Notes: generated from the letters alone by a model not told the origin. 20,000 nucleotides of DNA from an uncultured virus (IMG/VR IMGVR_UViG_3300031224_000010) (IMGVR_UViG_3300031224_000010), one strand, 5' to 3'. Positions 780 to 16,344 are shown, counted from the stretch's first letter. Numbers and translations: made by a program.

Positions 780-1192
780 CAGCTGTTTGCTCCTATCAAG
801 GTCAGTGCTGCGCTGAAAAGCTCTTTACGCAGGGCGAAACCAAGCGCTGCGATGCCAATAAGCACCCAGATTGCGCCCGCGAAAAACCAGACCTTTCGGG
901 AAAGCCCGGAAACGATTTTACCCAAGCCATCGATCGCTTCAGCGGTGGTTTTATCGCTTTTTTCTATGTACTCCTTGTTCTGCTCGAGGAACTTCTCCAG
1001 CGCTTCCTTGGTTTCTTTTTGCTGCTCCTTTTGGCTCACAGTGAACTCCCGCAGGTCGCCGCGGATGTCAGAAACGGCGTTCTCCAGGGCGTTTACCCTG
1101 GGGTGGAGATCTTCCAGTTGTCTGAGTCTCGCCGCCCAGTCGAGGGCGACCATTTCTTGCAGTTGCATCGCTTCGGTCCGTTGTTCAGGCAT
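779..1192 (-). CDS. Coiled-coil protein with one C-terminal transmembrane helix, in the holin position (holin-like candidate)
   Basis: 137 aa; amphipathic N-terminus, hydrophobic VWFFAGAIWVLIGIAALGFAL; lies between X and the endolysin and is translationally coupled to the latter. Confidence 0.6.
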   Translation of the reverse strand: MPEQRTEAMQLQEMVALDWAARLRQLEDLHPRVNALENAVSDIRGDLREFTVSQKEQQKETKEALEKFLEQNKEYIEKSDKTTAEAIDGLGKIVSGLSRKVWFFAGAIWVLIGIAALGFALRKELFSAALTLIGANS

Positions 1193-1201
1193 GCCGTCTC
1201 C

Positions 1202-1408
1202 TCAGTTCCACAGCTGGACGGTCGGTTGAGTGGGTTGCCGGTCTGCCTCTGGCAGTTTCACCAGGGTCCCCGCGGGAATGGTAGGGCCAAAGCTCGCAAG
1301 CCCCGGATTGGCTTCATAGGCGGCTTCAGTGACGCCAGCAGTGTGGCCATAAACCCGGTAGCAGATGCGGTCCAAGGTGTCGCCCTGTATCGCCCTGACT
1401 TCTATCAT
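1202..1408 (-). CDS. X: P2 gpX-like tail/baseplate protein
   Basis: MIEVRAIQGDTLDRICYRVYG...EANPGLA...PAGTLVKLP; position after L. Confidence 0.93.
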   Translation of the reverse strand: MIEVRAIQGDTLDRICYRVYGHTAGVTEAAYEANPGLASFGPTIPAGTLVKLPEADRQPTQPTVQLWN

Positions 1409-1869
1409 CAGATCAGCTCCACGGTGGTTCGGGCCCTGCCTCGAATGTCTGAAAGCGCCCAGGCAGCATCACGCCGGTAGTCGTCGTCCGTCATTTCCAG
1501 GGCTTCAGCGCGGTCGTGCCCGGCGCCGGTGCTGTCATAATCTCGGTACCGCTCTACCAGGTTGGACTTGGCCAGTGACCAGACCGCACGCAAGTAAAGG
1601 GATTTGTGATAACCGGCAGGCTGCCAGGTGGGCTGGGGCGTATCCTCGATGGCGTCAACACCGGCATCCTGCTGTTCCTGCATCCACTTGGCCAGCAGCT
1701 GGTTGGCTTCGTACATCGCCGCCTCAAGGGCGTGAACGGCGCGGCTGTCAGTGACCGTGCCGTCGATCCGCATCGCTTCCCGGAAGTTCTGAAGTTGAAG
1801 ATCAGGAAAGAAGCTGGCGTTGGTGATGGTGATGGTTTCGGTGGTACCACCGGCTGCAATCAGGCTCAT
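1408..1869 (-). CDS. L: Head completion/stabilization protein
   Basis: ITNASFFPDL...FREAMRIDGTVT...YLRAV...ERYRDYDSTGAG...RTTVELI; GGAGG RBS. Confidence 0.93.
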   Translation of the reverse strand: MSLIAAGGTTETITITNASFFPDLQLQNFREAMRIDGTVTDSRAVHALEAAMYEANQLLAKWMQEQQDAGVDAIEDTPQPTWQPAGYHKSLYLRAVWSLAKSNLVERYRDYDSTGAGHDRAEALEMTDDDYRRDAAWALSDIRGRARTTVELI

Positions 1870-1885
1870 GTTGCCTCCGTGTGAG

Positions 1886-1962
1886 GGCGGTGGACGGGGC
1901 CGTAGAGCTTGTGGCGTAGCCTTGGCTCAGGGCCCCGTGCCGCCTGGCGTCGGGGTGCCGAC
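1886..1962 (-). promoter_or_regulatory. Structured intergenic leader between M and L (long bulged hairpin plus small hairpin)
   Basis: Arms GGCGG/CCGCC (1886-90/1940-44), ACGGGGCC/GGCCCCGT (1894-1901/1931-38) and GAGC/GCTC; second hairpin GTCGG-GGTG-CCGAC at 1949-1962. Confidence 0.6.
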
Positions 1963-1972
1963 TCGGGTCCGG

Positions 1973-2806
1973 CTATTCGCCGGAATTCTTCAGTTCTTTC
2001 CTCAGCGCCTCGATGTCCTTCTTCACGCCGGCGCGATCGTTCAGTTTCAGGGCGCGGTCGAGGGCATCCAGCGCTTGATCGGGTTTGCCGCTGTCACGCA
2101 GGCGGTACCCGTAAGCCTTGTAGAGCTTTGCCTTTACCTGGTCGTGCATGTCGGATTCCCCGAACATGTTCACAGTGCGCTCAACGGCTTGGATGAATTT
2201 TCCATCGGGGTCTTCACCCTCGGTTTCCAGCGCTGACACGGCCACTTCTTCAGCCACCAGGTTGGCGGTGGTCCGTTGGTAACGGTCCGGTGTTTCCAGC
2301 CCGTTGGCCACGGCGTAATCAGCAATATCCAAGCCGGTTTCCAGATCACCCACGTCCAGGTACCAGACCATCAGCGTCATCAGGACTTCGTCCTGGTGCC
2401 CGGGTGCGGCCTGCAGTACGCCCTTTACATACTCTTCGTAGTTGGGCAGCAGTTCGCGTTTGGCCTCTACCTTGCGCTCGATGCTCTGGATGTCGTGCAA
2501 TCGCCGGGTGTCCTCGATGATCGCTGCCAGGTGCAGTTCGTAAGCGTCGCCCGTGGGGCGATCAGGTGTTGATGCCGATGCTTCCTTTTCAACCAGTTTG
2601 CGCTGGTAGCGCTTGGCGGCCGGGCTAAGCGGTCCGCCGCCCGATGGCTGTTTCTGGAACGGGTTCGGCTTTGCTTCGCTGCCCCGTTTTGCGGCCTGCT
2701 CTTCCCGCTTTCCCTGTGCCTTGCGGGCTTTTTCCTGTGCTTCGGCCCTGGCCGCCTCCCGGGCGGCCTGGACTTTTTCGAAGCGCTTCTTGGCTGGACT
2801 AACCAT
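1973..2806 (-). CDS. M: Terminase small (endonuclease) subunit
   Basis: LHDIQSIERKVEAKRELLPNY...QDEVLMTLMVWYLDVGD...DMHDQVKAKLYKA...AGVKKDIE; position between N and L. Confidence 0.92.
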   Translation of the reverse strand: MVSPAKKRFEKVQAAREAARAEAQEKARKAQGKREEQAAKRGSEAKPNPFQKQPSGGGPLSPAAKRYQRKLVEKEASASTPDRPTGDAYELHLAAIIEDTRRLHDIQSIERKVEAKRELLPNYEEYVKGVLQAAPGHQDEVLMTLMVWYLDVGDLETGLDIADYAVANGLETPDRYQRTTANLVAEEVAVSALETEGEDPDGKFIQAVERTVNMFGESDMHDQVKAKLYKAYGYRLRDSGKPDQALDALDRALKLNDRAGVKKDIEALRKELKNSGE

Positions 2807-2816
2807 TACGCCCCCT

Positions 2817-3824
2817 TTACACCAGTGTTATGTTCTCGACCACGGCGCCGGCGCCGAAATCTTCCACTACGTAGGCCTCGTTTGAAGACTCGTAGTTCTC
2901 GATGCGGTTGCGCTTCGGGTTGTCCATGACGTGACGGCGGCGGCCGCCGTTCTGGTAATAGATGGACAGGTTTTCCATGGTGGTGACCATCATGGTTCCG
3001 TCCGGAATGAACGGTACCTGCACGCCCTGCAGGCCGCCAATGCGCATCTGGCTGACGATCAGATCCAGTGCCTGCTGTTCAGTCGGATCGTTATCCTTGT
3101 TGATCAGCGGGAAGTACTTGTCGCTCATCAGGGTGCGGCCAACCAGCACCACCAGATCCTGGCTTTCCCGGTGCCACGGATCCAGCATGCTGTGAACCAC
3201 GTCGTAAACCAGGGCGTCCAGGTTCTTGTAGTCACCGGTTGAGCCAACAGTGACTTCGCCAGATGCTGCCACTACCTCATCCATTACCCGCTCTGGGGAA
3301 GTGGTGCGGTAGTGCTGGAGCCAGCCTTTGTTGACGTCTTCCAGAAGCGGGTTGGCTACCCGGTCTGTCTCGGATGCAGCGCTGAGGCCGTTGAAGCCGA
3401 TCATGATCCGGTCTAGGGCCTGCTGCTTCACGATCGCGTCGCGCAACATGGCCTGGAAGTTGGGGAACTTGGCCCAGGCGTCGATTTTGGCGTAGGGCAC
3501 GGCGGTGTCGAATTCGGTCAGGAAGCACTCGTAACCGTTCGCGCCCAGGTCACTCAGATCGCGCGGTGTGCGATCCTTGGCTGACACATCGGTGCGCCCG
3601 GCAATGGTGGATCCCACGCCCAGGCCGATCTTCTCGCCTTTGACTTCGTCCACGCCGATCACGTTGATCCGGTTCAGAAAGCCGCTGGATTCCTGAATTC
3701 GCTGTTCCAGCCGCTGCTGGACGGACGGTTCCACCGCGAAGGTTTCGGCGGCGGACTCTACGCCATTGAGCTCCGCGATCCGGCGGCGGAGCTTGTTGAA
3801 CTGTACTCTGGATTCGTTGCGCAT
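2817..3824 (-). CDS. N: Major capsid protein, P2 family (335 aa)
   Basis: Start moved to MRNESRVQF (ATG 3824, GAAGGAAG upstream); FAVEPSVQQRLE...IDAWAKFPNFQ...ALDRIMIGFNG...ENYESSNEAYVVED. Confidence 0.96.
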   Translation of the reverse strand: MRNESRVQFNKLRRRIAELNGVESAAETFAVEPSVQQRLEQRIQESSGFLNRINVIGVDEVKGEKIGLGVGSTIAGRTDVSAKDRTPRDLSDLGANGYECFLTEFDTAVPYAKIDAWAKFPNFQAMLRDAIVKQQALDRIMIGFNGLSAASETDRVANPLLEDVNKGWLQHYRTTSPERVMDEVVAASGEVTVGSTGDYKNLDALVYDVVHSMLDPWHRESQDLVVLVGRTLMSDKYFPLINKDNDPTEQQALDLIVSQMRIGGLQGVQVPFIPDGTMMVTTMENLSIYYQNGGRRRHVMDNPKRNRIENYESSNEAYVVEDFGAGAVVENITLV

Positions 3825-3837
3825 AATCTGACTTCCT

Positions 3838-4665
3838 TCAGCAGTCGGTGAGGATAGCGTTCTGACCACCGGTGGCCGGCGTGCGGGGACTGTGTTGGTG
3901 AGGCGTGGTTTCAAGCTGGTTCTTCAGCTCGTTGAAGCTCTGCTCAAGGGCTTCATGAGACTGCTTCAGCTGTGCGTACTCGTGCTGGACTCCGTCCATA
4001 GAGCTGCGCAGATGCTGGCCTTCGGACACGAACAGCTCCAGGGTTTTCTCCAGATCGGCCCGGAAATCCGAGAAGCGGGCGGCCGTGGCGTCGCGGTGTT
4101 TGCTGAACAGGGCTTTTACCTTGGTCAGCATGGATTCACCGCCTTGATCACCGCTGCCCTGGTCGCTGACTGCTTCAGAGAAATCCAGCTCTGCTTCAAC
4201 GGCTTCTGAGAAGAGGTTTTCCGCACGCTGCTTCCGCGCATTCAGCGGGCTGTTTTTGGCCCTACTGCTGAACTGGAGCATTTCGGTGCCCAGGGATGCG
4301 GGGGAATCAGTCACGGCCAGACCTACCAGATAGGCTTCGCCGGTGTCCGAGAACTCGGGATCGACCTCGATGGAGGTGTAAATCTTCTGCCGGTCCTTTG
4401 TCATTTTGACTAGGTCTTCGGTGGGATCGATCTCCGCGAACAGCTCCAGCTTGCCTGCGTCATTCTCTTCGGCCTTCACTGCAGTCACGTCACCAAAAGC
4501 CTTGAAAGGCCCATCGGCGAACATGCCGCGCATGTGTTCAAGCCAGACCCGGGCGCCGTATTTCTCCCGGTTGAAGTTCGCGGCCATCTGTTCGATCCAG
4601 GCGCGGCTGATTGCCCGTCCGTCGGTAGTGGCACCTTGAGTGGCCACTCGAAACCATTTTTTCAT
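3838..4665 (-). CDS. O: Capsid scaffolding protein/protease (275 aa)
   Basis: Start moved to MKKWFRVATQGATTDGRAI (GGAG RBS); KIYTSIE...YLVGLAVTDSPASLGTEML; ends LTDC. Confidence 0.95.
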   Translation of the reverse strand: MKKWFRVATQGATTDGRAISRAWIEQMAANFNREKYGARVWLEHMRGMFADGPFKAFGDVTAVKAEENDAGKLELFAEIDPTEDLVKMTKDRQKIYTSIEVDPEFSDTGEAYLVGLAVTDSPASLGTEMLQFSSRAKNSPLNARKQRAENLFSEAVEAELDFSEAVSDQGSGDQGGESMLTKVKALFSKHRDATAARFSDFRADLEKTLELFVSEGQHLRSSMDGVQHEYAQLKQSHEALEQSFNELKNQLETTPHQHSPRTPATGGQNAILTDC

Positions 4666-4753
4666 GTTGCTCTCCAATCGGGGGTGCGAGATGCTGTCTT
4701 TCGCGTGTGCCACCAGATTCGGGCCCCAGCCCGACAAAGCCAACCGCCGCCGA

Positions 4754-4774
4754 TTGTTACGCCGCTCCTCACAA
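4754..4774. promoter_or_regulatory. Putative Ogr-family activator box in the divergent O/P late promoter region
   Basis: TTGT-N13-ACAA dyad (TTGTTACGCCGCTCCTCACAA); P2-family late promoters carry TGT-N12/13-ACA activator sites at this position. Confidence 0.6.
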
Positions 4775-4819
4775 ATGAACATGCGATAGCGCCACCCCCG
4801 CAGCCTTTAGGCTGACGGC

Positions 4820-6583
4820 ATGGATAAGACTGTCGAATCGGATTACCGCGATCACTTTGTGAAGGCACGCACCCTCTACTGGATGGGATGGCGAGCGCAG
4901 CGCATTGCCGATGAACTGGGCATCAGTCCTCAGCTGTTTCACAACTGGAAAAAGCGGTTCAGCTGGGACGAAGCCGGGCCGATCCAGCGGGTGGAGAGCT
5001 CGCTGGAAGCCCGCATGGTTCAGCTGGTGTTCAAGGATGAAAAAGAGGGGAAGGACTTCAAGGAAATTGACTTGTTGGGCCGGCAGATCGAACGGCTGGC
5101 CAGGGTGCATAAATACGAAGAGTCCGGGCGCGAATCAGACCTGAACCCGAACATCCAGGAGCGCAACAAGGCACCGCGAAAGGCCAAGAACGATATCGGC
5201 GATGAAGGGCTGGAAGAGCTGACCAGCGCTTTCGATAAATCGCTGTTTGACTACCAGCACAAATGGAAGGTGGCTGGGCTCACCCACCGGATCCGCAATA
5301 TTCTGAAGTCCCGGCAGATCGGCGCCACCTGGTACTTTGCCCGCGAAGCGATCGTGGACGCCTTCCACACTGGTAAGAACAAGATCTTCCTGAGTGCGTC
5401 GAAGGCCCAGGCTCATGTTTTCCGGCAGTACATCGTTCAGTTCGTCAAGGACACCGCCGGCGTTGAACTGCGCGGTGATCCCCTGGTGTTGCCCAACGGC
5501 GCCACCCTGTATTTCCTCGGTACCAACGTGCGAACAGCCCAGAGCTATCACGGCGATCTGTACATGGATGAGTACTTCTGGATCCAGAGCTTCCAGCAGT
5601 TCCGGAAAGTCGCATCCGGTATGGCCATGCACAAGAAGTGGAGCCAGACCTACATTTCCACGCCTTCCGCGATCACCCACGAAGCCTATCCGTTCTGGAC
5701 TGGCGAGCAGTTCAACAAGCGCCGGGCCAAAGATAAGCGGGTGTCCATCGACACATCGCACGCCGCGCTGGCTGAAGGAAAGGCATGTGATGATGGGCAG
5801 TGGCGCCAGATTGTGACGGTAGAAGATGCCATCGCCGGCGGCTGTGACCTGTTCGATATCGACCAGCTGCAGATGGAGTACTCCGCGGACGAATACTCAA
5901 ATCTGCTGATGTGCCAGTTCGTTGACGACACCCACGCCGTGTTCCCGCTCGCCAAGCTTCAGCGCTGCATGGTCGACAGCTGGGTGGAGTGGCGCGAACT
6001 AAAGCCATACGCCGAAAGGCCGTTGGGTGATCTGGAAGTGTGGCTGGGCTATGACCCATCCGGCGGCGGGGACGATGGCGACGGCGCCGGCCTGGTGGTG
6101 GTTCTGCCTTCAAAATCCTCCAATAAACCTCACCGGGTGGTGGAGAAGGTCCGCCTTCGTGGCCTGGATTACGAGCGTCAGGCAGAAGAGATACGCAAAC
6201 TGACCAAACGCTATAACGTGTCGTTTATCGGCATGGACACTACCGGCCTGGGTGAAGCCGTGGCGGAGCTGGTGGAAAAGTTCTTCCCGTCGGTAACCCG
6301 TTTCAACTACTCGCCGGATGTGAAGGCCCGGCTGGTGATCAAAACCCAGAACATCATCGACCATGGCCGGCTCCAGTTCGATGCCGGCTGGAGCGATATG
6401 GCGCAAAGCTTCATGGCGATTCGACGTGCCATGACAGATTCACAGAGACAGCTCACCTACAAGTCCGGCCGCAGTGAAGACACCGGCCATGCCGATCTGG
6501 CATGGGCGGTGATGCACGCGTTGTCGAATGAACCCCTCGAAGGGCCCACCGAAAAGGGTGGCAGCATGATGGAGATTTACTGA
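4820..6583 (+). CDS. P: Terminase large (ATPase) subunit
   Basis: N-terminal HTH, ILKSRQIGATWYFARE Walker A, LYMDEYFW Walker B, GYDP nuclease motif, GHADLAWA. Confidence 0.97.
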   Translation: MDKTVESDYRDHFVKARTLYWMGWRAQRIADELGISPQLFHNWKKRFSWDEAGPIQRVESSLEARMVQLVFKDEKEGKDFKEIDLLGRQIERLARVHKYEESGRESDLNPNIQERNKAPRKAKNDIGDEGLEELTSAFDKSLFDYQHKWKVAGLTHRIRNILKSRQIGATWYFAREAIVDAFHTGKNKIFLSASKAQAHVFRQYIVQFVKDTAGVELRGDPLVLPNGATLYFLGTNVRTAQSYHGDLYMDEYFWIQSFQQFRKVASGMAMHKKWSQTYISTPSAITHEAYPFWTGEQFNKRRAKDKRVSIDTSHAALAEGKACDDGQWRQIVTVEDAIAGGCDLFDIDQLQMEYSADEYSNLLMCQFVDDTHAVFPLAKLQRCMVDSWVEWRELKPYAERPLGDLEVWLGYDPSGGGDDGDGAGLVVVLPSKSSNKPHRVVEKVRLRGLDYERQAEEIRKLTKRYNVSFIGMDTTGLGEAVAELVEKFFPSVTRFNYSPDVKARLVIKTQNIIDHGRLQFDAGWSDMAQSFMAIRRAMTDSQRQLTYKSGRSEDTGHADLAWAVMHALSNEPLEGPTEKGGSMMEIY

Positions 6584-7569
6584 TGAGCAAAAGCATTGAA
6601 GCGTTCACTTTTGGTGAGCCGGTACCGGTGATGGACAGGTACGACATGCTCTACACCGGCTGCTGGATGGCCGGCCAGGATTACTACGAACCACCGGTCG
6701 ATATGGCTGCACTCGCCAAGTCCTACCGATCCACCGCTCACCATGGCAGCGCATTGCAGGTTAAGCGCAACATTCTGGTGAAAACCTTCCAGCCCACTCA
6801 ATACCTGAGCCGGCAAGACTTCGCGCGCATGGCGATGGATTACCTGGTGTTCGGCAACCTTTACGGCGAAAAACTGGAAAACCGGATGGGGCGACTGATC
6901 CAGGTGAAGCCGATTCTGGCGAAATACTGCCGGCGAGGCGTGAAGCCCGGATCCTTCTGGTGGGTTCATGACTGGATGAACCACACGGAATTCGCAATGG
7001 GGAGCGTCGTTCACCTAATGGAGCCAGACATTGACCAGGAGCTGTACGGTGTTCCCGATTATCTGGGCTCGCTTCAGTCCGCCTGGTTGAACGAATCCGC
7101 CACACTGTTCCGCCGCAAGTACTACCAGAACGGAAGCCATGCCGGTTTCGTGATGTACATGACGGACGCCACCCAGAGCGCGGATGATGTCGACAACCTG
7201 AGAAATGCACTGAAGGAAAGCAAGGGCCCGGGCAACTTCAAAAACCTGTTCGTCTACGCCCCCAATGGCAAGAAGGACGGCCTGCAGGTGATCCCGGTCA
7301 GCGAGGTAGCTGCCAAGGATGATTTCTGGAACATCAAAAATGCCACCCGCGATGACCAGCTGGCCGGGCACCGGGTTCCGCCCCAGCTGATGGGCATAAT
7401 TCCCACCAACACATCCGGCTTCGGTGACGCAGAGAAGGCGGCCCGCGTCTTCGCCGCCAACGAACTGGAGCCCCTGCAGGAACGCTTGTTGGAGATGAAC
7501 GACATCGTGGGCAAGGAAGTGATCAAGTTCAAACCTTACACCCTGGGGGAACTCTCCCCCGACACCTGA
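6583..7569 (+). CDS. Q: Portal protein (PBSX/P2 family)
   Basis: EAFTFGEPVPV...YYEPP...LYGVPDYL...LNESATLFRRKYYQNGSHAG...HRVPPQLMGIIP. Confidence 0.97.
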   Translation: MSKSIEAFTFGEPVPVMDRYDMLYTGCWMAGQDYYEPPVDMAALAKSYRSTAHHGSALQVKRNILVKTFQPTQYLSRQDFARMAMDYLVFGNLYGEKLENRMGRLIQVKPILAKYCRRGVKPGSFWWVHDWMNHTEFAMGSVVHLMEPDIDQELYGVPDYLGSLQSAWLNESATLFRRKYYQNGSHAGFVMYMTDATQSADDVDNLRNALKESKGPGNFKNLFVYAPNGKKDGLQVIPVSEVAAKDDFWNIKNATRDDQLAGHRVPPQLMGIIPTNTSGFGDAEKAARVFAANELEPLQERLLEMNDIVGKEVIKFKPYTLGELSPDT

Positions 7570-7596
7570 CAGATTTCGGCGACTGCGTCAGCCTTT

Positions 7597-7621
7597 GGCC
7601 ACCTTCGGGTGGTCTTTTTTT
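7597..7621 (+). terminator. Rho-independent terminator of the P-Q operon
   Basis: GGCCACC-TTCG-GGTGGTC followed by T7. Confidence 0.85.
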
Positions 7622-7667
7622 GTGCCCGACATACGCCCCCCGGCGGGGGTGCTCACGCCCACAGCTC

Positions 7668-7694
7668 GCGGTCACCCCACCCCACCTGCGGGCT
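7668..7694. other. Candidate cos (cohesive end) site
   Basis: GCGGTCACCCCACCCCACC-TGCGGGCT; 12/19 match to the reverse complement of P2 cos (GTGCTTTCCCCGCCTCGCC); expected position downstream of the portal; IHF site nearby. Confidence 0.55.
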
Positions 7695-7746
7695 CTTGGT
7701 ACTGCGATTATTCAAGGCCCACGGATAACCAACAAGGGTACGCACG

Positions 7747-7759
7747 TAAGTCATTGATT
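7747..7759 (-). promoter_or_regulatory. IHF binding site next to cos
   Basis: Reverse complement AATCAATGACTTA is a perfect WATCAANNNNTTR match. Confidence 0.6.
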
Positions 7760-7786
7760 GTTGGTTGCTGGGAGCCTGAGAAAGTA

Positions 7787-8070
7787 GGGGGGCTTCGGAA
7801 AAGTGTAACAACGTAACAGGGCCGGATATTGGCTTTTATGCTGCTGATATATATAGGGTTTTTCTGTTACACCTAAAGTGTAATAAAACGTAACGAAAAC
7901 GTTACATCGTTGATTTTATTAGGGTGCCTATAGGCATTCCGTTACAGTTAGATAGTGTAACAACATTACGTTTTTATCTTCTAAAGTGTAACAACTTAAT
8001 TCTAGGAATATCAAGTAGATAGATACAATTATTACACTTATTACGTTTGTTACACTTTTCCGAACCCCCC
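7787..8070. repeat. AT-rich dyad-symmetric iteron array, putative replication origin
   Basis: Perfect 18-bp inverted repeat TTCGGAAAAGTGTAACAA (7794-7811 / 8047-8064) with G6/C6 ends; 13 YGTAAY motifs; central palindrome TGCCTATAGGCA at 7925-7936. Confidence 0.7.
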
Positions 8071-8217
8071 AAACATTCTGAGCCAGCACGCCCCGCACGC
8101 ACGCCCGCACACGCGTATATCACTCCAGAATATCCACACTTTCATAAACAGAAAGACTCCATCCTTGGCTTCGTGGCGATGGTGTGTGGCGGGCGGCAAT
8201 ACCTGGTCTTGGTCTCA

Positions 8218-8370
8218 GTCACCGGCGGCAGCACGTCGACAACGCTAACGTATGTTATTGATTACTGGAGCGGGGAATGTGCGCTTGTGAGCGGGGGGAT
8301 TCTGCTGGGAGAGGCTTTAAGATGCTGAATATAATAGAGATAAGCATATCGGTGACGTGGCTCAAGCCAC
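8218..8370. other. attP-like segment
   Basis: Inverted GTCACCG/CGGTGAC (8218-24, 8350-56), GAGCGGGG direct repeats (8268, 8289), IHF-like site (8251-63), AT-rich patch; located downstream of xis-int. Confidence 0.35.
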
Positions 8371-8402
8371 TCCTGGCCGGGTTTTCTGCGTGGTGGGGCC
8401 AT
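8262..8402 (-). pseudogene. int: Truncated integrase: about 15 N-terminal codons fused to unrelated sequence (46-aa ORF)
   Basis: Hand translation: ATG one base after the xis stop gives MAPPRRKPGQEWLEP..., resembling the basic start of lambda-type integrases; stop after 46 aa; no catalytic domain. Confidence 0.55.
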
Positions 8403-8403
8403 A

Positions 8404-8643
8404 TTATTGCAACTGTTCTGCCAGATCCTGAAGTAATCCTAGCTCCTGCGGGTTCTCCGGCAAACCCCGGATCCGCCGTTCCATGGTTTCGAAGTAGGTA
8501 TCCAGATCAATTCTCCAGCGCCGGCCGTCGCGGAACGCGCCCGGGATGTCCGGGCAACGCCTGCGAATGGTGGCGAGCGACGGCGGCTGGTTGTCTTCGC
8601 AATAAACCACCTCGATGAAGGTCTGTATTGAGACCGGTCTCAC
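8404..8643 (-). CDS. xis: Excisionase-like winged-HTH protein
   Basis: PPSLATIRRRCPDIPGAFRDGRRWRI resembles lambda Xis (PRSLETVRRW...KDGREY); last gene of the early operon. Confidence 0.7.
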   Translation of the reverse strand: MRPVSIQTFIEVVYCEDNQPPSLATIRRRCPDIPGAFRDGRRWRIDLDTYFETMERRIRGLPENPQELGLLQDLAEQLQ

Positions 8644-8969
8644 TGGGTTACCGCCTCCCGCCGAACGTGCCGGCTTTTCCAGCGCTGAAAGTGTGCCTTG
8701 ATCTGCCGGAACTTGGTGGCAGCCCGCACGTTATGGTCCAGTTCCGCCCGGCTGCTGATCTGGCATGCGGTGGTGATCAGGTCCCGGGCATCTTCTTCGG
8801 TGTGGGTACCGTCCGGAATTTCGACGTTGCCTTTTACGCTCTGGGCCCGGTCGAGGTACAGCTGGAAGGCTGGATCCTGGCAGAGCATGGCGGCCGAGCG
8901 GGCCAGGTGGCCGCCTTTGAGGTCAGCCATTTTCCTGTTCGCCAATTCGTTATTCTGGGTGCCGGTCAT
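8640..8969 (-). CDS. Conserved phage hypothetical protein
   Basis: 109 aa, 4-bp overlaps on both sides; LCQDPAFQLYL...CQISSRAELDHN motif. Confidence 0.8.
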   Translation of the reverse strand: MTGTQNNELANRKMADLKGGHLARSAAMLCQDPAFQLYLDRAQSVKGNVEIPDGTHTEEDARDLITTACQISSRAELDHNVRAATKFRQIKAHFQRWKSRHVRREAVTQ

Positions 8970-9568
8970 AAACCCTCCAGTGAAACCCGCTTTCTGTCTT
9001 CCAGGTATTCCCGGTTAACCTGCTGCCACCGGTCGTAACGCTGCTGGCTGAAGCCCGGGCCTTTCATGCGGTTGATGGTTTTCTGGTTTTTGGTGACCTG
9101 CCGGATTATTTCTTCCGGCGCGTACTGGTATTGCCAGAGTTCCAGGGCGTCATCTGGCTTGGAACCGTGCCAGGTCTGGCAGATCCAGCCCACGTCGAAT
9201 ACCTGGGATGTGCGCTGGGCGGACATTACGTCCGCTCGGAGCTGGTGATAGGCGCCCTGGATCTGCTGCAGGTTGTAGCTGGGCAGGTCGAATGTTCTGC
9301 TCTCCATCCACTTGGCCCCATCCACGGATTGGCACAGGGCGCGAACGCCAACTGACCAGTTGCGCGGGTACTTCAGTAAGTGGCTGGCCAGGTCGTAGCC
9401 CATGGGTATCCAGCCGAACTGCGTCCGCTTCTCTGCCGTGGTGTATTGCTGGCTATCGTCGGGGCTGATCATGCCCTCCCAGGTCCACAATCGGCACTGG
9501 GAGAACAGGCGCTGGTCGCGGGCGTGGGCGCTGTGCTGCTTTCTGCGGTTGTTACGCTTTTGGCTCAT
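8966..9568 (-). CDS. Hypothetical early protein (200 aa)
   Basis: Coupled ATGA overlaps within the early operon; Trp-rich. Confidence 0.8.
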   Translation of the reverse strand: MSQKRNNRRKQHSAHARDQRLFSQCRLWTWEGMISPDDSQQYTTAEKRTQFGWIPMGYDLASHLLKYPRNWSVGVRALCQSVDGAKWMESRTFDLPSYNLQQIQGAYHQLRADVMSAQRTSQVFDVGWICQTWHGSKPDDALELWQYQYAPEEIIRQVTKNQKTINRMKGPGFSQQRYDRWQQVNREYLEDRKRVSLEGL

Positions 9569-9885
9569 TGCGGAATCTCCCCGATTTCGGCCAGGGCTTT
9601 GCGGCCGGCGCGAAGCATGGCTTGCCGGTGGGACTTCTTCTCGATGCCGCGAAAATTCATCAGGTGCAGCACGCTCAGTACCTTTCGGATGGTGCCGGCG
9701 GGGTCGCGTTCGGCATCGTTGTTCAGGCTGATGGCGCAGTCGCTGGCGCTGGTGTTGATCAGGGCGGTCATCTGCTGTTCTGTCCGGTCAATCAGGCCCC
9801 CGAGTGGGGCGCGGACTGGCTTCCGGATGCCGTCTTCCCGAAGCCCTTCTTCGAAGTCCTGCCTGGTTGCTTCTTGGATGCTCAT
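9565..9885 (-). CDS. Hypothetical early protein (106 aa)
   Basis: ATGA overlaps; AAGGAG RBS. Confidence 0.8.
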   Translation of the reverse strand: MSIQEATRQDFEEGLREDGIRKPVRAPLGGLIDRTEQQMTALINTSASDCAISLNNDAERDPAGTIRKVLSVLHLMNFRGIEKKSHRQAMLRAGRKALAEIGEIPQ

Positions 9886-10256
9886 GCCGCAGTCTCCTTC
9901 AGCTCGACTTCGATGGGTTTGTTCATGGTAATCAGGTGATCCAGGTAGCGGATGAAGGTTTCCAGCCTGGCCATCCGCTCGCGGTAGTCCTCGTGCATCT
10001 CCGTCAGGTCCATAAACTCATAGAAATACAGGCGGATATCCAGACCGCCCAATGGTTCTGGCAATTCGAAGCCCTCGCGCCACACCGTGTTCACCGGCAT
10101 GATCTGCACATCAGCAGTAGAGGTGTGCCCATGAAAATCAACGTGTGCCTGAACGATCTTTCTGCGGTTCAGGATCATGCCCTGCAGGAAGATTTCCTCT
10201 AATGCCAGGTGCAGGTTGTCGGTCATCTGTTCTTCGGTTAGCGTCAGCGTATTCAT
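9882..10256 (-). CDS. Hypothetical early protein (124 aa)
   Basis: Start moved to MNTLTL (GGAG RBS) to remove the overlap with the upstream gene. Confidence 0.75.
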   Translation of the reverse strand: MNTLTLTEEQMTDNLHLALEEIFLQGMILNRRKIVQAHVDFHGHTSTADVQIMPVNTVWREGFELPEPLGGLDIRLYFYEFMDLTEMHEDYRERMARLETFIRYLDHLITMNKPIEVELKETAA

Positions 10257-10288
10257 ATTCTTCTCCGTCTGGCCTTTCCGGCCTGTAT

Positions 10289-10507
10289 TTATCGGTAATT
10301 CCGCGTCTTCACTTCCAGCAGCTGCTGGCAATCCACGCAGGTGGCGCAGCCGGGCAGCGCTTCCCGCCGTTTGGCGGGGATCTCGGTACCGCACTCTTCG
10401 CAGTAAGGATCGTTACTCGTGCCCTTTGGCTGGTTCCGCTGGTTCTCCAGGGCCAGCTCCAGGGACTGCTCGATGTAGTCACCGGCGATATCGGCTTTAT
10501 CCGCCAT
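10289..10507 (-). CDS. DksA/TraR C4-type zinc finger protein
   Basis: MADKADIA...CEECGTEIPAKRREALPGCATCVDCQ. Confidence 0.92.
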   Translation of the reverse strand: MADKADIAGDYIEQSLELALENQRNQPKGTSNDPYCEECGTEIPAKRREALPGCATCVDCQQLLEVKTRNYR

Positions 10508-10997
10508 GGCGCAGGGCCTCCGTGGCGTCTGGGTTCAGGTCCATGGCCGGGACCAGGCGAACGGATCCGGCTTTCACGCAGGCCTGGGCCTGCTCGGGGG
10601 AATCGAACACCACCACCATGGCCACGCGGTGGTGGCAGCGGCCGTGGTCTTCGTTGATCACGGTCAGCTCTCCAAGGTCGTGCACGCGGCCGGTGGGTTG
10701 ATTTGCAGGTTCGTTGTTCATGGGCGCTTCCTTATTTGGCGGTAGCCGGTAACGGATCAGTTTCAGGCCACGGTCGGTGATCAGGGTTTTGGTGTAGGGC
10801 GTTTTACCCCTGGTTGGGTGCTCATAGGTGCCGGTCTTCACCACGAAGATGCCTTTGCCGCGGAACGGTCCGGCGGGCATGTTGTGTTTGTCCAGCATCT
10901 TCAGCCTGCGAAGCTCGCGGGCCAGTGTGTTGCGGCCGGTGTCCAGCAGGGCGGCGGCCTGGTCGAAGGTGTGTTCCACGGTGGTTTCCTCCCTCAC
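10497..10997 (-). CDS. Antirepressor KilAC(ANT)-like domain protein with an extra C-terminal domain
   Basis: TFDQAAALLDTGRNTLARELRRLKML...GIFVVKTGTY...TKTLITDRGL. Confidence 0.75.
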   Translation of the reverse strand: MREETTVEHTFDQAAALLDTGRNTLARELRRLKMLDKHNMPAGPFRGKGIFVVKTGTYEHPTRGKTPYTKTLITDRGLKLIRYRLPPNKEAPMNNEPANQPTGRVHDLGELTVINEDHGRCHHRVAMVVVFDSPEQAQACVKAGSVRLVPAMDLNPDATEALRHGG

Positions 10998-13702
10998 AGC
11001 TCTTTCTCAAAGATCCAGCACCGGACGCTGTCGCTGCCAAGACTGTTGCCCTGGCTGCGAATCACGGAACGGACGGTGCGGCTGGATTCGATGAACTTGC
11101 GGCTGCGCGATGTTTTCAGGTGGCGCTTTAGCTCGCTCATCGGTGGTATGCGCAGCTTCTCTTCTGCACACACATGCTCGAAGTGCTTCAGGTTGACGGC
11201 GATCAGCTTGGCTTCGTCACCGTAGTGGTTCAGCACCGGGTAGCTGTTCAGACCCTCGATGTAGTCAACCGCTTCCCAGAACTCCTGCACCATCGGGTGG
11301 TCCGCATTCACGGACGTTTGGCGCTCCAGGGCCATTTCCTGAACCATCTCCCGCGCGGGCTCAAGGTAGGATTCGGGCAGCAGCTTCAGGCCATCCGGCC
11401 CCAGGCAATCCACCAGGGCCAGAAGCTGCCCGTGGTTTTTCGCAATCCGGTGGATGCGGATGTCGGGCATCTCGGCCAGGGCTTTTTCGTACTGGGGGGC
11501 GCGCTCAGTCACCAGGCGCATTACCTTAGATTCGCCGGCGGTGGCCTGCAGCACGAAGCCGCTGACCTTTTCCATGGGCGTGCGTTCCAGCTTCTCGGCC
11601 AGGGCCTTGGTGGTCTCGTTGTGGTTTTCGCGGGTGACGTTCAGGTGCATGATGCGCTGCAGCACGGCATCGCTGGCGTTTACCTGGGCGTTCTGGCTGA
11701 TCACGATGGCGCCACGGAAGGGCGGTTCGTAGGTGTCGTTGCCGCCGTTCTTCTGGCCACGGCTGCGCACGCTGCGGCCGTTGTAGGCGGTTTTCAACTC
11801 ATCCCAGTCGAACTGTTTCTGCTTTCCGCCGGCGCCGTCCTGGTCGCGGTCGGACTCAATCAGCACAACCGGCAGGTTGGACACCTGGGCGAAGTTCCGG
11901 GCCCGGGCGGCTAGGGTGGCCTTGCTGGGGTCGAAGCCTTCGTAATCCTGCCGGCCTACCAGCTTCCACAGGAATTCGATCAACGTGGATTTACCGGAGC
12001 CGGCTTCGCCCACAATCTCGATGAAGGGAAAGCTTTTGTGTGCCTTGCGGATCTGCTCGGCGAACAGCGTGCCCAGCCAGTAGGACAGGGCGATCACACC
12101 CTTGGGGCCGAAACAGTTGGCCAGATCCTGAGCCCAGCCGCGCTGGTAGTCTGCGGAGTTCTTATTGATGTTCAGGGCTACCGATTCCGACAGCGTTTTC
12201 ACGCTCATGCGGCCGATGTCGTAGTAGTCTTCGTTGTTCAGCTCGTGTATCTGCCCGGCGTGAACGGCCAGCTCCGGGAATACCCAGGTTTCGTGCTCTT
12301 TGCTGTAGCCGATGAAATCGATGGTCTCGACAGTTTTAATGCCGGAGATTTGCTGCTTCAGCAGGCGGTCCAGCTGATGGCTGGAACCGGTCCACACGGC
12401 ACCGGGCGCCACGCCCAGCAGGCGCTTCTTGAATTCGCTGGCGCTGGCCAGCTGGCCGCCGCTGAAGGTGTTCTTAACCGGCCGCCCGTCGTGCGGGAAA
12501 TCCACACGGTAGTAGTACCAGCTTTCATCGGTGATCTTGTTGGCCAGGTAATACAGGGCGGTGGGGTAGCAGTTGGCGATCTCGATGACCGCGTTGCACT
12601 GTTCCAGGGCCCGGGTAACGATCTGCTTGTCCGTCAGCGGCTCGTCGCTTTCCTCCAGGTCGCTCATCGCCTTGTGGAATTCGTCCATGTTCAACTTGAA
12701 CCAGAACAGGCGGTTGTTGAACCCGAAAGGGAATTCTTTCCGGTTGGTGTGCGTGTAGATGCGGTTGGCTTTCTCGCCAGCGCTGCGGGCAATGACCAGG
12801 TCGCCCTGGTAAAGGAATTCGTCGGTGGTCGGCTCGCCGTGTTCGTTGACCAGCTCGCCTCGCTGCCAGGCGTCGTTCCAGTCACGCTTGAACTTGCCTT
12901 CCCGGGGGATAACCGCAGCGCCTACCTTCAGGCCCTGTGACCGGGCGATGTTGGCAAACTTGCCAATGTAGCGAACACCGGCTTCGTCACCGTCCATGGC
13001 CCAGATGATGCGGGGCATGTCTTGGCCCGCTTTTTCCCGGGTGGCTGTCAGGGTGTCCAGGAACTTATCCGGGTAGTTGTTGCAGCTGAACGCGGCCACG
13101 GCGGGTATGCCGGCGTGGTACAGGGCGATCGCATCGAAGATGCCTTCCACCACCCAGAGCTCCTTGCCCTGGGACAGATCCAGCCCGGGCGGTGCCCAGG
13201 CCAGGCCTTTGAAGTTGGCGCCCCGGTTGAAGTGGGCTTTCATTTTGCCGAACCGGTGGGGCTTGTCGATCAGCCGTTCCCAGTGGTCGCGGTCGTTGAT
13301 CTGGAAGCGCACGGTGGCGCTGCTGATGTTGCGCTCGTAATCCCAGTAGGTTTCCTGGTTGTACCAGCCCTTCACCACAGCCAGATCGAAGCCGCGGCCG
13401 TGCTTCATATACGCATCGGCCACTTCGGTACCGGTGGGCTTTTCGCCTTGCTTCAGGTCGGTTCTGGCGTAGCGCTCTGTCCAGCTGTCGAACAGATCCG
13501 GGAACAGCTCCTTTACGTGGTGCTGTTCACCGCAACGGCTCTCACGCCCGCACTTCACCATCCATGGTTCGTCGGTGCCCACGAAGGCTTCACGCTTGCC
13601 ACAGGAGTGGCAGCGCAGGCGGCGCAGGAACTTGCCGCGCTCCAGGCCTTCGTAGTCACTCTGGAGCCGTAGAAGGATGTCGGCCCTTAGTTGGTCTTGC
13701 AT
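10994..13702 (-). CDS. Replication primase-helicase (Zn finger + TOPRIM + P-loop NTPase), 902 aa
   Basis: CHSC...CGRESRC zinc finger; VVEGIFDAIAL and AMDGDEAG TOPRIM motifs; GEAGSGKS Walker A; VVLIESD Walker B. Confidence 0.9.
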   Translation of the reverse strand: MQDQLRADILLRLQSDYEGLERGKFLRRLRCHSCGKREAFVGTDEPWMVKCGRESRCGEQHHVKELFPDLFDSWTERYARTDLKQGEKPTGTEVADAYMKHGRGFDLAVVKGWYNQETYWDYERNISSATVRFQINDRDHWERLIDKPHRFGKMKAHFNRGANFKGLAWAPPGLDLSQGKELWVVEGIFDAIALYHAGIPAVAAFSCNNYPDKFLDTLTATREKAGQDMPRIIWAMDGDEAGVRYIGKFANIARSQGLKVGAAVIPREGKFKRDWNDAWQRGELVNEHGEPTTDEFLYQGDLVIARSAGEKANRIYTHTNRKEFPFGFNNRLFWFKLNMDEFHKAMSDLEESDEPLTDKQIVTRALEQCNAVIEIANCYPTALYYLANKITDESWYYYRVDFPHDGRPVKNTFSGGQLASASEFKKRLLGVAPGAVWTGSSHQLDRLLKQQISGIKTVETIDFIGYSKEHETWVFPELAVHAGQIHELNNEDYYDIGRMSVKTLSESVALNINKNSADYQRGWAQDLANCFGPKGVIALSYWLGTLFAEQIRKAHKSFPFIEIVGEAGSGKSTLIEFLWKLVGRQDYEGFDPSKATLAARARNFAQVSNLPVVLIESDRDQDGAGGKQKQFDWDELKTAYNGRSVRSRGQKNGGNDTYEPPFRGAIVISQNAQVNASDAVLQRIMHLNVTRENHNETTKALAEKLERTPMEKVSGFVLQATAGESKVMRLVTERAPQYEKALAEMPDIRIHRIAKNHGQLLALVDCLGPDGLKLLPESYLEPAREMVQEMALERQTSVNADHPMVQEFWEAVDYIEGLNSYPVLNHYGDEAKLIAVNLKHFEHVCAEEKLRIPPMSELKRHLKTSRSRKFIESSRTVRSVIRSQGNSLGSDSVRCWIFEKEL

Positions 13703-13717
13703 GCGGGGCGCTCCGGA

Positions 13718-14056
13718 TCAGGCGTTGATTCGATTGATGGTGTTGTGCTGCGAGTCCCGCAGCTGCAGGAGCTCGTGCACTGAAAAGATGTTGGTGCGGC
13801 CGCTGGCGTCGTGGATAACCACGGTATTGCCGGTAGTGAGGCTGACATCGACGTAGGCCGGCGGCTTGCCGGTGGCTTCCAGATCCGCCCATGCCTTGGT
13901 GGTGACCAGTGCCGCCCGCCGCCGACTGCATTGGTACTGCTCCATCAGGCTGTCGATGGTCATATCCACACACTCGCGGGCGTCGTAGTGGCCATTGCGC
14001 AGAGCCAGAAGCTGGGCATAGGCGGAGTCGGTCATGTTTTGTGCGATCGCGTTCAT
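13718..14056 (-). CDS. Hypothetical protein (112 aa)
   Basis: Start moved to MNAIAQ (AAAGGA RBS, ATGA overlap with the ogr-like stop). Confidence 0.75.
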   Translation of the reverse strand: MNAIAQNMTDSAYAQLLALRNGHYDARECVDMTIDSLMEQYQCSRRRAALVTTKAWADLEATGKPPAYVDVSLTTGNTVVIHDASGRTNIFSVHELLQLRDSQHNTINRINA

Positions 14057-14616
14057 CGTTGTGGTTCCTTTTTCTTGGGTTGGAACTTCTCGTAGGCCAG
14101 CTCCATTTCCTGCTGGCATTGCTCCCGGACTTCCGGGGATAACGGTATCTCTCGCAGGCCGCCGTCCGGGTCCAGTGACAGGCGGTCGGTGTGAGTAATG
14201 AACACCACGCCCCGGTACCCGCAATGGTCTGCGTCCTGGCAGAACACGTAGAGCTGACGCTGGGCCCGGATCATCTGCACGCTGGTGCGAACACGGCACA
14301 CGCCCTGGCAGTGCGGGCAGAGAATTCTAAGAAAGCTGTTTCGAATGCCGGGCTGAAGTTTCTGGTGGCCTTCCTCCGGCATTGTCGGGTGCCTGGCTTC
14401 CAGCACCGGGCCGTAGGAGACCTGAACGGACCCCCGGTAGCCGCACTCAAGGTTCCGGCACTGCACCAGAGCGTCCGATCCGCGCTCCTGTATGCTGCGA
14501 CTGGACTGAATGGAACACGCCTCCCCGCAGGATGGGCAGTTCAGGTGCAGGAAGTTCCGGGTCAGCCGGCTCATGGTTGCCGGGTTTTCCGCTTGCTGTG
14601 CGCTGTCGCTCGCCAT
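14053..14616 (-). CDS. ogr: Ogr/Delta-like late transcriptional activator with two zinc-finger domains
   Basis: CPSC...VQCRNLECGYRG and CPHC...VRTS...LYVFCQDADHCGYRG; start MASDS (alternative MSRLT at 14574). Confidence 0.82.
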   Translation of the reverse strand: MASDSAQQAENPATMSRLTRNFLHLNCPSCGEACSIQSSRSIQERGSDALVQCRNLECGYRGSVQVSYGPVLEARHPTMPEEGHQKLQPGIRNSFLRILCPHCQGVCRVRTSVQMIRAQRQLYVFCQDADHCGYRGVVFITHTDRLSLDPDGGLREIPLSPEVREQCQQEMELAYEKFQPKKKEPQR

Positions 14617-14633
14617 GGTGATTGCTGCGCCCC

Positions 14634-14831
14634 TTAGTGCCGTTGTTTTGTGCCTGGGTGAACCAGGTGGATGCGGCTGTTCCGATCCTCGATGGTTTTC
14701 AGGAACCGGAGCCCTTCTGCCATCGGCAGCCCTGCTCTGATTACGTAGGCGTTGATGCGCCACTTGGTGTCCCTTTCCTGTCTGTCGAACCACTCCATCA
14801 GCTCTTTTTCGGTGTTGGTTTGTTGGTGCAT
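14634..14831 (-). CDS. Hypothetical protein (65 aa)
   Basis: GAGGA RBS; fits the early operon. Confidence 0.65.
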   Translation of the reverse strand: MHQQTNTEKELMEWFDRQERDTKWRINAYVIRAGLPMAEGLRFLKTIEDRNSRIHLVHPGTKQRH

Positions 14832-14925
14832 TCAGTCCTCGGTGGTGATTAAGGGATTCTCTGGGGATTCCCTACGGAAGCTGTTAAAAGCCAAAACTCC
14901 CTGGCGTCGTTAATTCATTGCGAAA

Positions 14926-15252
14926 TTAGAGCGTTCGGCGCTCGTACCTCTGGCGCAGCTCTTCGCCGCCCGGAATGCCTTCTTCGTCCAGGAAGCGATC
15001 AATGGCCCGGCGGCGCTGGCCGGGGACTTGACTGGCTTTCAGGATTTCTTCGGCAGAGGGAACACCGGCCTGTTCCAGGAACTGCTGGATGGCATGGCGC
15101 GCAGCGGCCGCACGGCGGCGGGTGCCGTCAGACCCCAGATTGCGAGCCCACCACAGAAGGCGGATGTGGTCTTCCGTGCTCAGGCGGATGCTGAACTTAT
15201 GCTCGCGTACCGCTTTTGGCGGCGTGTGCTGGGTGTAGCCAATGTCCGTCAT
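14926..15252 (-). CDS. Putative ribbon-helix-helix DNA-binding protein
   Basis: KFSIRLSTEDHIRLLWWA...AAAARHAIQQFL pattern; AAGGAG RBS. Confidence 0.6.
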   Translation of the reverse strand: MTDIGYTQHTPPKAVREHKFSIRLSTEDHIRLLWWARNLGSDGTRRRAAAARHAIQQFLEQAGVPSAEEILKASQVPGQRRRAIDRFLDEEGIPGGEELRQRYERRTL

Positions 15253-15300
15253 GTATTGCTCCTTGGCGCCGATGCAGTTACCGGGCCGTTACTCCGGGAA

Positions 15301-15504
15301 TCAGCTGGAGGTGCTTTCCTGATAACTGGCAAGGCCCTGGAGGAAAAAAATTCGAGATTGAGACGCCATGGATCGCCCCTCTGCCAGAGCGGCTTTTTCA
15401 AGGCCTGCTCTCTCTTCCGGTAGAAGGCGCAGAGCAATAGGCTTGGCAGTTAGAACGCCAGACGGTGCTCGGTGGCTGTAGCCGGGTTTTTTTGAATCCT
15501 TCAT
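15301..15504 (-). CDS. Cro-position regulator, Arc/RHH-like (67 aa)
   Basis: First early gene, divergent from cI; KPIALRLLPEERAGLEKAALAEGRSMASQSRIFFLQGL; start moved to MKDSK. Confidence 0.7.
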   Translation of the reverse strand: MKDSKKPGYSHRAPSGVLTAKPIALRLLPEERAGLEKAALAEGRSMASQSRIFFLQGLASYQESTSS

Positions 15505-15513
15505 GGTGTATTC

Positions 15514-15538
15514 TCTGTGTAACGATGTATTACACAGA
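15514..15538. promoter_or_regulatory. Operator-like palindrome in the cro/cI intergenic region
   Basis: TCTGTGTAA-N7-TTACACAGA, perfect 9-bp arms. Confidence 0.7.
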
Positions 15539-15604
15539 ATGATAGACCCCAATGCGCAAGAATGTAAACAAAACGGGAATTTAAAGTTCCTATCGTTATC
15601 CAGA

Positions 15605-16282
15605 ATGAGCGAAAGACTTTTAAATAGTGAACAGATTATTCACAGAATGAGAGAGGTTATCGGCGCCAGGAATGACGGGCTTGTCGGCGAGTTTGTTGGA
15701 GCTTCGAAGCAGGCGGTCTACAACTGGAAAAACCGTGGATCTATTCCAATTGAGTACTGCGTCAATTTTTGCGTGAAGACGGGACGGAGCATGGACTGGC
15801 TTATTTTTGGTTCTGAACCCGGAATGTCAGTGGCAGTAGCCGCGTCTAATTATGGGATCACCGCCGATGAGGACTACAGCGAAATCCCGGTGTACGACAT
15901 CGAGGCCAGTGCAGGCCCTGGGTCCATTTTTGACCAGGAGCTGATAAGCACCTATTTAAAGTTTCGGAAGGACTGGCTAACACGCGAATGCCTGCATGTT
16001 CATAACCTGGTAGCGATTCGCGTTACCGGTGATTCAATGGACGGCACTCTAACCACGGGTGACACGGTTCTTATTGATCGGTCCAGGAAGAAGCCTGACG
16101 GCGTATTTGCCATAAGGATCGGTGACTCGCTGCGCATTAAGCGCCTGCAGAAGATGACTGACGGAACTCTCCGGGTATCCAGCGACAACCCGGTTTATCA
16201 GCCTGAGCATATCCACCCTGAGAACATGAACCAGGTGGAGATTGTTGGGCAGTGTTACTGGCGAGATGGTAGGGTTTTTTAA
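15605..16282 (+). CDS. cI: CI-like repressor (HTH + S24 peptidase)
   Basis: GASKQAVYNWKNRGSIP HTH; ASAG cleavage site; GDSM catalytic Ser; IKRL catalytic Lys; start moved to MSERLL. Confidence 0.92.
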   Translation: MSERLLNSEQIIHRMREVIGARNDGLVGEFVGASKQAVYNWKNRGSIPIEYCVNFCVKTGRSMDWLIFGSEPGMSVAVAASNYGITADEDYSEIPVYDIEASAGPGSIFDQELISTYLKFRKDWLTRECLHVHNLVAIRVTGDSMDGTLTTGDTVLIDRSRKKPDGVFAIRIGDSLRIKRLQKMTDGTLRVSSDNPVYQPEHIHPENMNQVEIVGQCYWRDGRVF

Positions 16283-16344
16283 GTTTTAGTAGTAGTCGCC
16301 CTTGAAGCCGGGGGCGGCAGTATTTGACGAAGGGAGCAGTAACC

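Follow-up and report, generated by a model that had tools for sequence, protein, structure and literature searches.

A probable natural integrase-attP deletion derivative of a P2-family phage of Marinobacter in salt lakes

How a temperate phage with an intact repressor and an intact excisionase-like gene comes to carry only the first codons of an integrase is the question raised by the window, the whole 20,000-nt stretch of uncultured viral DNA (IMGVR_UViG_3300031224_000010) analysed here. The initial annotation had described intact cI and xis genes, an ATG one base after the xis stop opening a 46-aa frame read as an integrase stub, an apparent breakpoint at the dyad GTGGCT-CA-AGCCAC beside a GTCACCG motif, and the absence of a recombinase from both usual int positions. 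These observations hold: the xis-like TAA stop lies at 8404-8406, followed in the minus-strand sense by the single base 8403 and the ATG at 8400-8402, the repressor (259 aa) and the 79-aa xis-like frame are complete, dyad and motif are both in the sequence, and the interval between cI and D encodes Zn-ribbon and DUF7338 proteins according to Pfam, PHROG and NCBIfam. Four readings of the stub had been offered, and the first, an int-deletion derivative, is the one upheld below. With a probability of roughly 85%, the window derives from a P2-family (Peduoviridae) phage of Marinobacter with a phiCTX-type layout, from which the integration module has been removed by a single 1342-bp deletion.

The phage has a P2-type virion module comprising the gpQ portal, the gpP terminase, gpO, gpN, gpM, gpL, gpU, gpD and the baseplate proteins V, W and J, as recognised by PHROG and Pfam (matches including phrog_68 at 2.6e-152, phrog_70 at 3.3e-149 and Phage_P2_GpU at 1.8e-44). 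The terminase and portal genes (4820..7569, plus strand) read toward the presumed cos region at about 7655-7690, and the portal is followed by a 700-bp non-coding stretch that includes an AT-rich region (Table 1). The best match of the primase-helicase is a protein of Halomonas phage vB_HboP_4908 with 58.9% identity, and the nearest named relatives judged by this enzyme are phiCTX/RSA1-type phages; a nucleotide search of named phages with the window returned short, distant matches only. The phiCTX-type phages (Halomonas phage vB_HboP_4908, Ralstonia RSA1/RSY1 and Burkholderia KS5) share the order of the window, with a LexA-like repressor, a divergent early operon, the primase-helicase, a DksA-like gene and the integrase placed last beside the genome end, but they keep the integrase, whereas the window keeps 13 of its codons. 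The integrase is likewise the last early-operon gene beside cos in the related contigs L006, L007 and L013-L016, as in the Halomonas phage. A 24,524-bp IMG/VR record (G001), matching window positions 1-17170 at 99.87%, contributes 7.3 kb more with lysis and tail genes, bringing the phage DNA examined to 27.3 kb; related contigs measure 32-35 kb, placing about 5-7 kb of the genome outside.

Table 1. Features of the window, with positions counted from its first nucleotide
Feature	Position	Strand	Basis or remark
gpL-like adaptor, small terminase, major capsid, scaffold	3-4782	-	PHROG/Pfam
Large terminase (gpP)	4820-6583	+	PHROG/Pfam
Portal (gpQ)	6583-7569	+	PHROG/Pfam
AT-rich iteron region	7776..8082		At least 7 AAGTGTAACAA-like words, in either orientation, between 36-nt inverted repeats (86% complementary)
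Retained attP P arm	8100..8362		Aligns to L006/L007 downstream of the core
46-aa fusion ORF	8262..8402	-	13 integrase residues and 33 residues from the attP P arm
Dyad GTGGCT-CA-AGCCAC	8357..8370		GTGGCTCAAGCCAC; spans the junction
Deletion junction base	8363..8363		Last attP core base (first anticodon-loop base), or codon-14 G as in L021/L011
Integrase head remnant, codons 1-13	8364..8402	-	MAPPRRKPGQEWL; first 39 nt identical to the 415-aa integrase gene of L007, L006 and L020
xis-like gene, 79 aa, intact, last complete early-operon gene	8404..8643	-	Weak PHROG excisionase match (phrog_629, E 5.9e-4)
Early operon	15437 down to 8262	-	Ogr/Delta zinc-finger, primase-helicase, KilAC-like, DksA-like, several unknowns, 79-aa xis-like gene
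Primase-helicase, 902 aa, phiCTX/RSA1 type	10994..13702	-	phrog_1139 (1108 bits), Toprim domain
cI/LexA-like repressor, 259 aa, intact	15503..16282	+	Peptidase_S24 5.6e-20, Phage_CI_repr 1.7e-9
Zn-ribbon protein	downstream of repressor, before D	+	Family search
DUF7338, gpD (17514-18500), gpU, tape measure	right part of window	-	PHROG/Pfam

GC content falls to 0.38-0.40 at 7700-8149, and the iteron region found there is a candidate replication origin for the primase-helicase, situated outside the deletion. It is kept at 67-78% in the integrase-bearing relatives L013-L016, and its words are distinct from the TGTCGAC arm-type repeats treated below. Contigs L006 and L010 stop at window positions 7671 and 7673, within GGTGGGGTGGGGTGAC, a possible cos end. 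Contig L007 leaves its match to the window at 7687, and its positions 8298-9602 resemble an IS200/IS605-type TnpA (139 aa) and the start of a TnpB, with the reading frames judged by eye.

Searching IMG/VR with the xis-like protein yielded 14 loci, and the missing gene was found among them. At the deletion point L007 has an intact 415-aa frame starting MAPPRRKPGQEWLS (also MAPPRRKPGQEWLSRYPGLY), the same gene is frameshifted in L006, and a frame of 411-416 aa follows xis after one or a few bases in 14 of the 15 relatives scanned, the frame of L015 being truncated at 290 aa. The search of relatives with Xis proposed at the outset has delivered full-length int directly after xis and a mapped breakpoint. 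The xis-like gene, whose product is without match in Pfam and NCBIfam, immediately precedes the integrase in every relative examined, with one base between it and the integrase ATG. The 46-aa frame of the window reads MAPPRRKPGQEWLEPRHRY... (also written MAPPRRKPGQEWLEP...) and has no family match in Pfam or PHROG, yet its first 13 residues recur identically in the full-length integrases of seven relatives (L007, L020, L021, L022, L009, L011 and L012). Judged by this identity, the start of the frame is the true N-terminus of a 415-aa tyrosine integrase still present in near-identical contigs, as the initial annotation had supposed of the stub.

The 415-aa protein is a divergent tyrosine integrase on the strength of indirect homology, leading from phrog_1 (E 9e-11, residues 4-402) and from the integrase of Burkholderia phage KS5 (BLASTP E 2e-16, 28% identity) to PF00589, which the KS5 integrase itself matches at 1.5e-15. 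Direct searches with the L007 protein gave no PF00589 at E<=0.01 in Pfam, where only Phage_int_M appeared (E 0.0018), nothing in NCBIfam, and nothing significant in a PDB sequence search, whose best row was lambda integrase at E 0.59. All 11 aligned integrases share D362, L363, R364, H383 and Y392, and R361 is nearly invariant, with RDLR (361-364), H383 and Y392 pairing with the HDLR, H and Y of the KS5 enzyme. The first catalytic Arg of KS5 pairs with Gln258, in an alignment only 28% identical, and this replacement may, with some uncertainty, explain why PF00589 misses the family. Residues 256-261 (MSQQPID) around Gln258 form a motif invariant in all 11 family members. A PF00589 search of G001 gave no match, a result that carries no weight because the intact integrase of this family also escapes that model. 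The family escapes both PF00589 and NCBIfam, making calls of "no integrase" unreliable for the relatives of this phage.

The integration target was located by comparison with host genomes. Among species-representative genomes, the integrase was recovered at seven loci (72-95% identity), mostly in Marinobacter; the integrase stop lies about 90-115 nt from a tRNA-Cys(GCA) gene on the opposite strand at six of the seven, and in six integrated prophages adjoining tRNA-Cys the integrase is whole (query residues 1-408 or more). In L006 and L007 the integrase is followed by three TGTCGAC repeats at 11-nt spacing and then by an attP core of 44 nt identical to host tRNA-Cys positions 31-74, which in L007 occupies 7580-7623, 90 nt past the integrase stop (7487-7489). 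Integrase and then core follow in this order in the seven free-form contigs scanned and in L034. ARAGORN and Rfam left the 44-nt tRNA piece in attP uncalled, and its identity to the host gene was seen by direct comparison. The identity of attP and tRNA stops at one same base, the first of the anticodon loop, in seven free forms (L006, L007, L013-L016 and L021), and the attL/attR repeats of two prophages (G002 and G003), one of them about 31 kb long in a Marinobacter oulmenensis record, start at that very base; prophages of the relatives are thus flanked by direct att repeats, at a tRNA gene adjoining the integrase.

The TGTCGACR word has six strand-matches in L007 at four distinct sites, two of them palindromic, against 0.52 expected, and none of 200 shuffles reached six. 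In the integrase group of 72% identity the repeats become TGGCGAC, a change in step with the enzyme that fits integrase arm-type sites. The P arm retained in the window holds one such repeat, TGTCGACG, at 8234-8241 on the minus strand. Contig L034 has the GTCACCG arm allele of the window beside an intact core, so the parental attP of this lineage is known. Between its integrase stop and its P' repeats, L034 also contains about 1.1 kb of cargo (584-1690) with frames of 159 and 196 aa, which had no NCBIfam match. Contig L021 (35,167 bp), a free attP form with a 94%-identical integrase and no host flank, is binned in a Pseudohongiella MAG and looks like a whole phage genome placed in the bin of another genus.

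Against this background the deletion could be defined to the base. L006 and L007 are 99.5-99.8% identical to window positions 14645-8364, continue with about 1.34 kb more at exactly that point and resume at 8373-7671, the flanks of the deletion being 98-99.8% identical to both contigs, which establishes the window as the int-deletion derivative that had been listed first. Relative to L007, the window is without 6281-7622, a segment of 1342 nt in which lie the integrase gene from codon 14 to codon 415, all three P' arm-type repeats and 43-44 of the 44 core nucleotides. Retained are xis, cI, the P arm and every replication and virion gene in the DNA examined. The att core is thus absent relative to near-identical phages, as in lambda b2-like deletions. 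In the integrase sense the window reads CAGGAGTGGCTT-G-AGCCACGTCACCG at the joint; with a slash for the break, L007 reads CAGGAGTGGCTT/TCCCGC... on the left and ...GGAGTTGCAG/AGCCACGTTGCCG on the right, leaving 0-1 nt of microhomology. The right end lies at most 1 nt from the boundary of attP/attB identity, the window retaining at most one core base. The left end falls inside CAGGA-GTGGCTT-TCCCG in the 5' end of the integrase gene, to be compared with GCGGA-GTTGCAG-TCCGC of attB. This sequence is one of only three GGA-N7-TCC sites on that strand of the 9.6-kb L007 locus. It shares 10 of 17 positions with attB, and about 0.5% of all L007 windows score as high.

The dyad at the breakpoint is the sole match of its kind in the window, with 0.07 expected at up to one mismatch and at least one match in 14 of 200 shuffles. 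Sequence comparison identifies it as a by-product of the junction rather than a pre-existing site, because its GTGGCT half belongs to the attP arm next to the core and its AGCCAC half is complementary to int codons 11-13. The GTCACCG motif stands at 8350-8356 (minus) and 8218-8224 (plus) and occurs nine times in the window against 3.0 expected, a count reached in none of 200 shuffles, with copies scattered through coding DNA. It shows no sign of function at the joint, since the junction-proximal copy reads GTTGCCG in the integrase-positive contigs L006 and L007.

The window shares its joint with three other IMG/VR contigs (G001, L008 and L010), the four coming from different samples, and a metagenome scan for it returned one contig. 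Window positions 7700-9000 occur in 20 runs, 19 of which are salt-lake metagenomes of 2019 that may belong to one campaign, one run possibly being the source. The Logan contigs of four runs (X1, X2, X12 and X19) were compared with the intact form, L007:5600-8290. The deleted joint 6280->7623 lies in one contig in X1 (depth 220.5, flanks 220-252) and in X2 (depth 146.1, flanks 147-151), with a unitig of the integrase body (1355 nt, 6251-7604 in both) at depths of 9.48 and 18.2, respectively; in X12 the joint is represented by loose ends on both sides, with the integrase-body unitig (1273 nt, 6251-7523) at 63.7 and flanks at about 97-154. Deleted and intact forms coexist in these three runs, and the deleted form is the majority, making up from about half to more than 90% of this phage by unitig depths that are rough and not copy numbers. 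The suspicion of a misassembled junction voiced in the initial annotation is thereby answered by independent Logan assemblies of three further runs. In all three runs the integrase-body unitig starts 30 nt before the branch point, demonstrating that the integrase body is joined to its own head, and none of the rows listed is a loose end at the integrase break. The Logan contigs listed for X1 and X2 include no core-to-arm contig of the integrase-positive form. Among 191 Marinobacter genomes the joint is absent, the three best alignments stopping at the breakpoint.

Another joint, L007 7623->8174, occurs at depths of 261.7 (X1), 87.7 (X2) and 7.5 (X12) and consists of the tRNA-Cys core end with a 26-nt copy of the iteron flank, followed by unrelated DNA. 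It may represent another element using the same tRNA-Cys site; an IMG/VR scan for its 24-nt word returned phage relatives and no element with the core beside the word.

The deleted lineage has diversified, with 22 differences over the 17170 nt shared by the window and G001 and a recombinant patch of 19 differences at 8379-8514 in L010. Within 8295-8575, nine SNPs set the four deleted contigs apart from L006 and L007. They were considered as proof of a single origin of the deletion, an argument that was dropped because the integrase-positive L034 shares five of seven arm alleles with the deleted contigs; the integrase-positive minority in X1, X2 and X12 is likewise without other xis alleles. 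These SNPs therefore mark the parental lineage, not the deletion, which may have arisen more than once. The fourth run, X19, taken from lake water in 2017, is dominated by a contig (depth 75.4) with a different joint, L007 5969->7407, which skips 1437 nt between two GCCGGCA words and removes the end of a 109-aa gene, the whole of xis and integrase nt 1-1165, keeping the attP core. Its minor form (depth 7.91) matches L034. The xis-int deletion of X19 is a second, independent event in the same module.

Concerning the origin of the 1342-bp deletion, the odds are slightly better than even that the phage's own integrase made or started it. The enzyme would act at the attP crossover boundary and at the attB-like sequence in its own 5' end, either by recombination within a circular genome or by aberrant excision between attR and the pseudo-site, the latter leaving a headless integrase in one host chromosome. 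The perfect dyad, a left end in an attB-like site and a right end at the crossover boundary agree with such an event; a precise exchange is contradicted by the 5-7-5 alignment of the pseudo-site, which gives a product one base too long, and the mediocre pseudo-site score also speaks against the integrase. In the work of Parkinson and of Davis and Parkinson in 1971, many lambda att deletions reportedly end at the crossover point and depend on Int, and in Streptococcus thermophilus phage Sfi21 site-specific spontaneous deletions are said to remove int/attP and yield non-lysogenising derivatives. A search of the literature on Marinobacter P2-like prophages and Int-promoted deletions found nothing about this phage, nor about any comparable deletion in phages of Marinobacter.

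A serious competitor, at somewhat less than even odds, is the same deletion made without the integrase, by illegitimate or microhomology joining (replication slippage or end joining), with the end at the core boundary being coincidental. The extra base over a precise exchange, the minimal microhomology and the unremarkable pseudo-site score are all compatible with this route, and the X19 deletion, lying at a classical 7-nt direct repeat, is plain microhomology, indicating that deletions here need no integrase. Coincidence would however have to place one end within 1 nt of the identity boundary, a single position in about 1.3 kb that is the same in seven free forms and two prophages, put the other end in one of the three GGA-N7-TCC sites in 9.6 kb, and generate a perfect 6-2-6 dyad expected 0.07 times per window.

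A bolder proposal, which is speculative and rather unlikely as a whole, is that the target look-alike GGA-N7-TCC within the first 15 codons of the int gene lets the enzyme excise its own gene together with the attP core, and that forms without integration are favoured in salt lakes in an ongoing shift away from temperate life. If true, a temperate phage would become a non-integrating one in a single step, and this would be ongoing in the wild.

Whatever its origin, the deleted form would, judging from the genes and sites that it retains, be unable to integrate site-specifically, and homologous recombination into a resident prophage would be the only way left. The closest known case is that of the lambda b2-type att deletions. 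In PMC4951002, turbid plaques and abortive, non-integrated lysogens are described for lambda b2. Like lambda b2 and att-defective lambda, the window phage is temperate in type, with its repressor intact and the attachment site lost, at least partly, by deletion; it differs in that the integrase gene is lost as well, in its P2-family background, and in the setting of natural salt-lake populations where the deleted form is the majority with no laboratory selection. By this analogy the deleted form would be expected to grow lytically and to be repressed without stable lysogeny, unless it is episomal.

The episomal state, a plasmid-like prophage maintained by the iteron region and the primase-helicase, is compatible with the deletion and improbable. 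The intact cI, the large primase-helicase with the iteron-rich AT region, and the abundance and diversification of the deleted form would suit it. The iterons and the primase, however, are no plasmid adaptation because integrase-bearing relatives have them in common, and the joint is found in none of the 191 Marinobacter genomes. The search for par genes suggested at the outset found no partition, protelomerase or plasmid-maintenance gene in the 27.3 kb of window and G001, which lends no positive support to an episome.

It is far less likely that an integrase supplied in trans, for example by a resident sibling prophage, integrates the deleted form. Integrase-bearing siblings do coexist in the same runs, and the P arm remains with one arm-type repeat; the deletion has nevertheless taken the core overlap, the segment identical to the tRNA and all three P' repeats, leaving no normal attP. 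Because no core, P' arm or integrase is left, normal integration would be impossible even with the enzyme provided, and this reading of the initial annotation is disfavoured.

Less credible still is a split-integrase switch, with a recombination site inside the 5' end of int, the catalytic body residing in the chromosome and a whole gene existing only in the integrated state. A phage copy reduced to the head and broken at a dyad suggested this arrangement, and a headless integrase would arise once if excision went astray between attR and the pseudo-site. In viruses of the SSV1 type, attP lies inside the integrase gene, which is whole in the free virus and becomes split on integration. The proposed switch would mirror that arrangement, whereas here attP lies outside the integrase frame, downstream of int, and integration leaves int whole, as in the six prophages; the anticodon loop, outside int, is where the att repeats of two prophages begin. 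Several free forms carry a whole integrase with attP after it (L006, L007, L013-L016, L021 and L034), the integrase body is contiguous with its own head in X1, X2 and X12, and the window is without the core needed for such an exchange, so this reading is abandoned. An assembly artefact at the palindrome, suggested by the dyad at the joint, is practically negligible in view of the four IMG/VR contigs from different samples, the metagenome contig and the independent Logan unitigs at depths of 146-220.

The exotic split-integrase reading is accordingly replaced by a natural int-attP deletion mutant with a known parent, a Marinobacter host, the tRNA-Cys anticodon loop as target and breakpoints defined to the base. 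Temperate phages that have lost att and int by deletion are an already known type, to which this phage adds a new natural case. Two independent deletions have struck the same module, one of them breaking at the crossover point, and both genotypes, deleted and intact, occur side by side in the same samples in ratios that can be measured. Together these features offer a field case in which the loss of integration by temperate phages, and the capacity of an integrase for self-deletion, can be tested.
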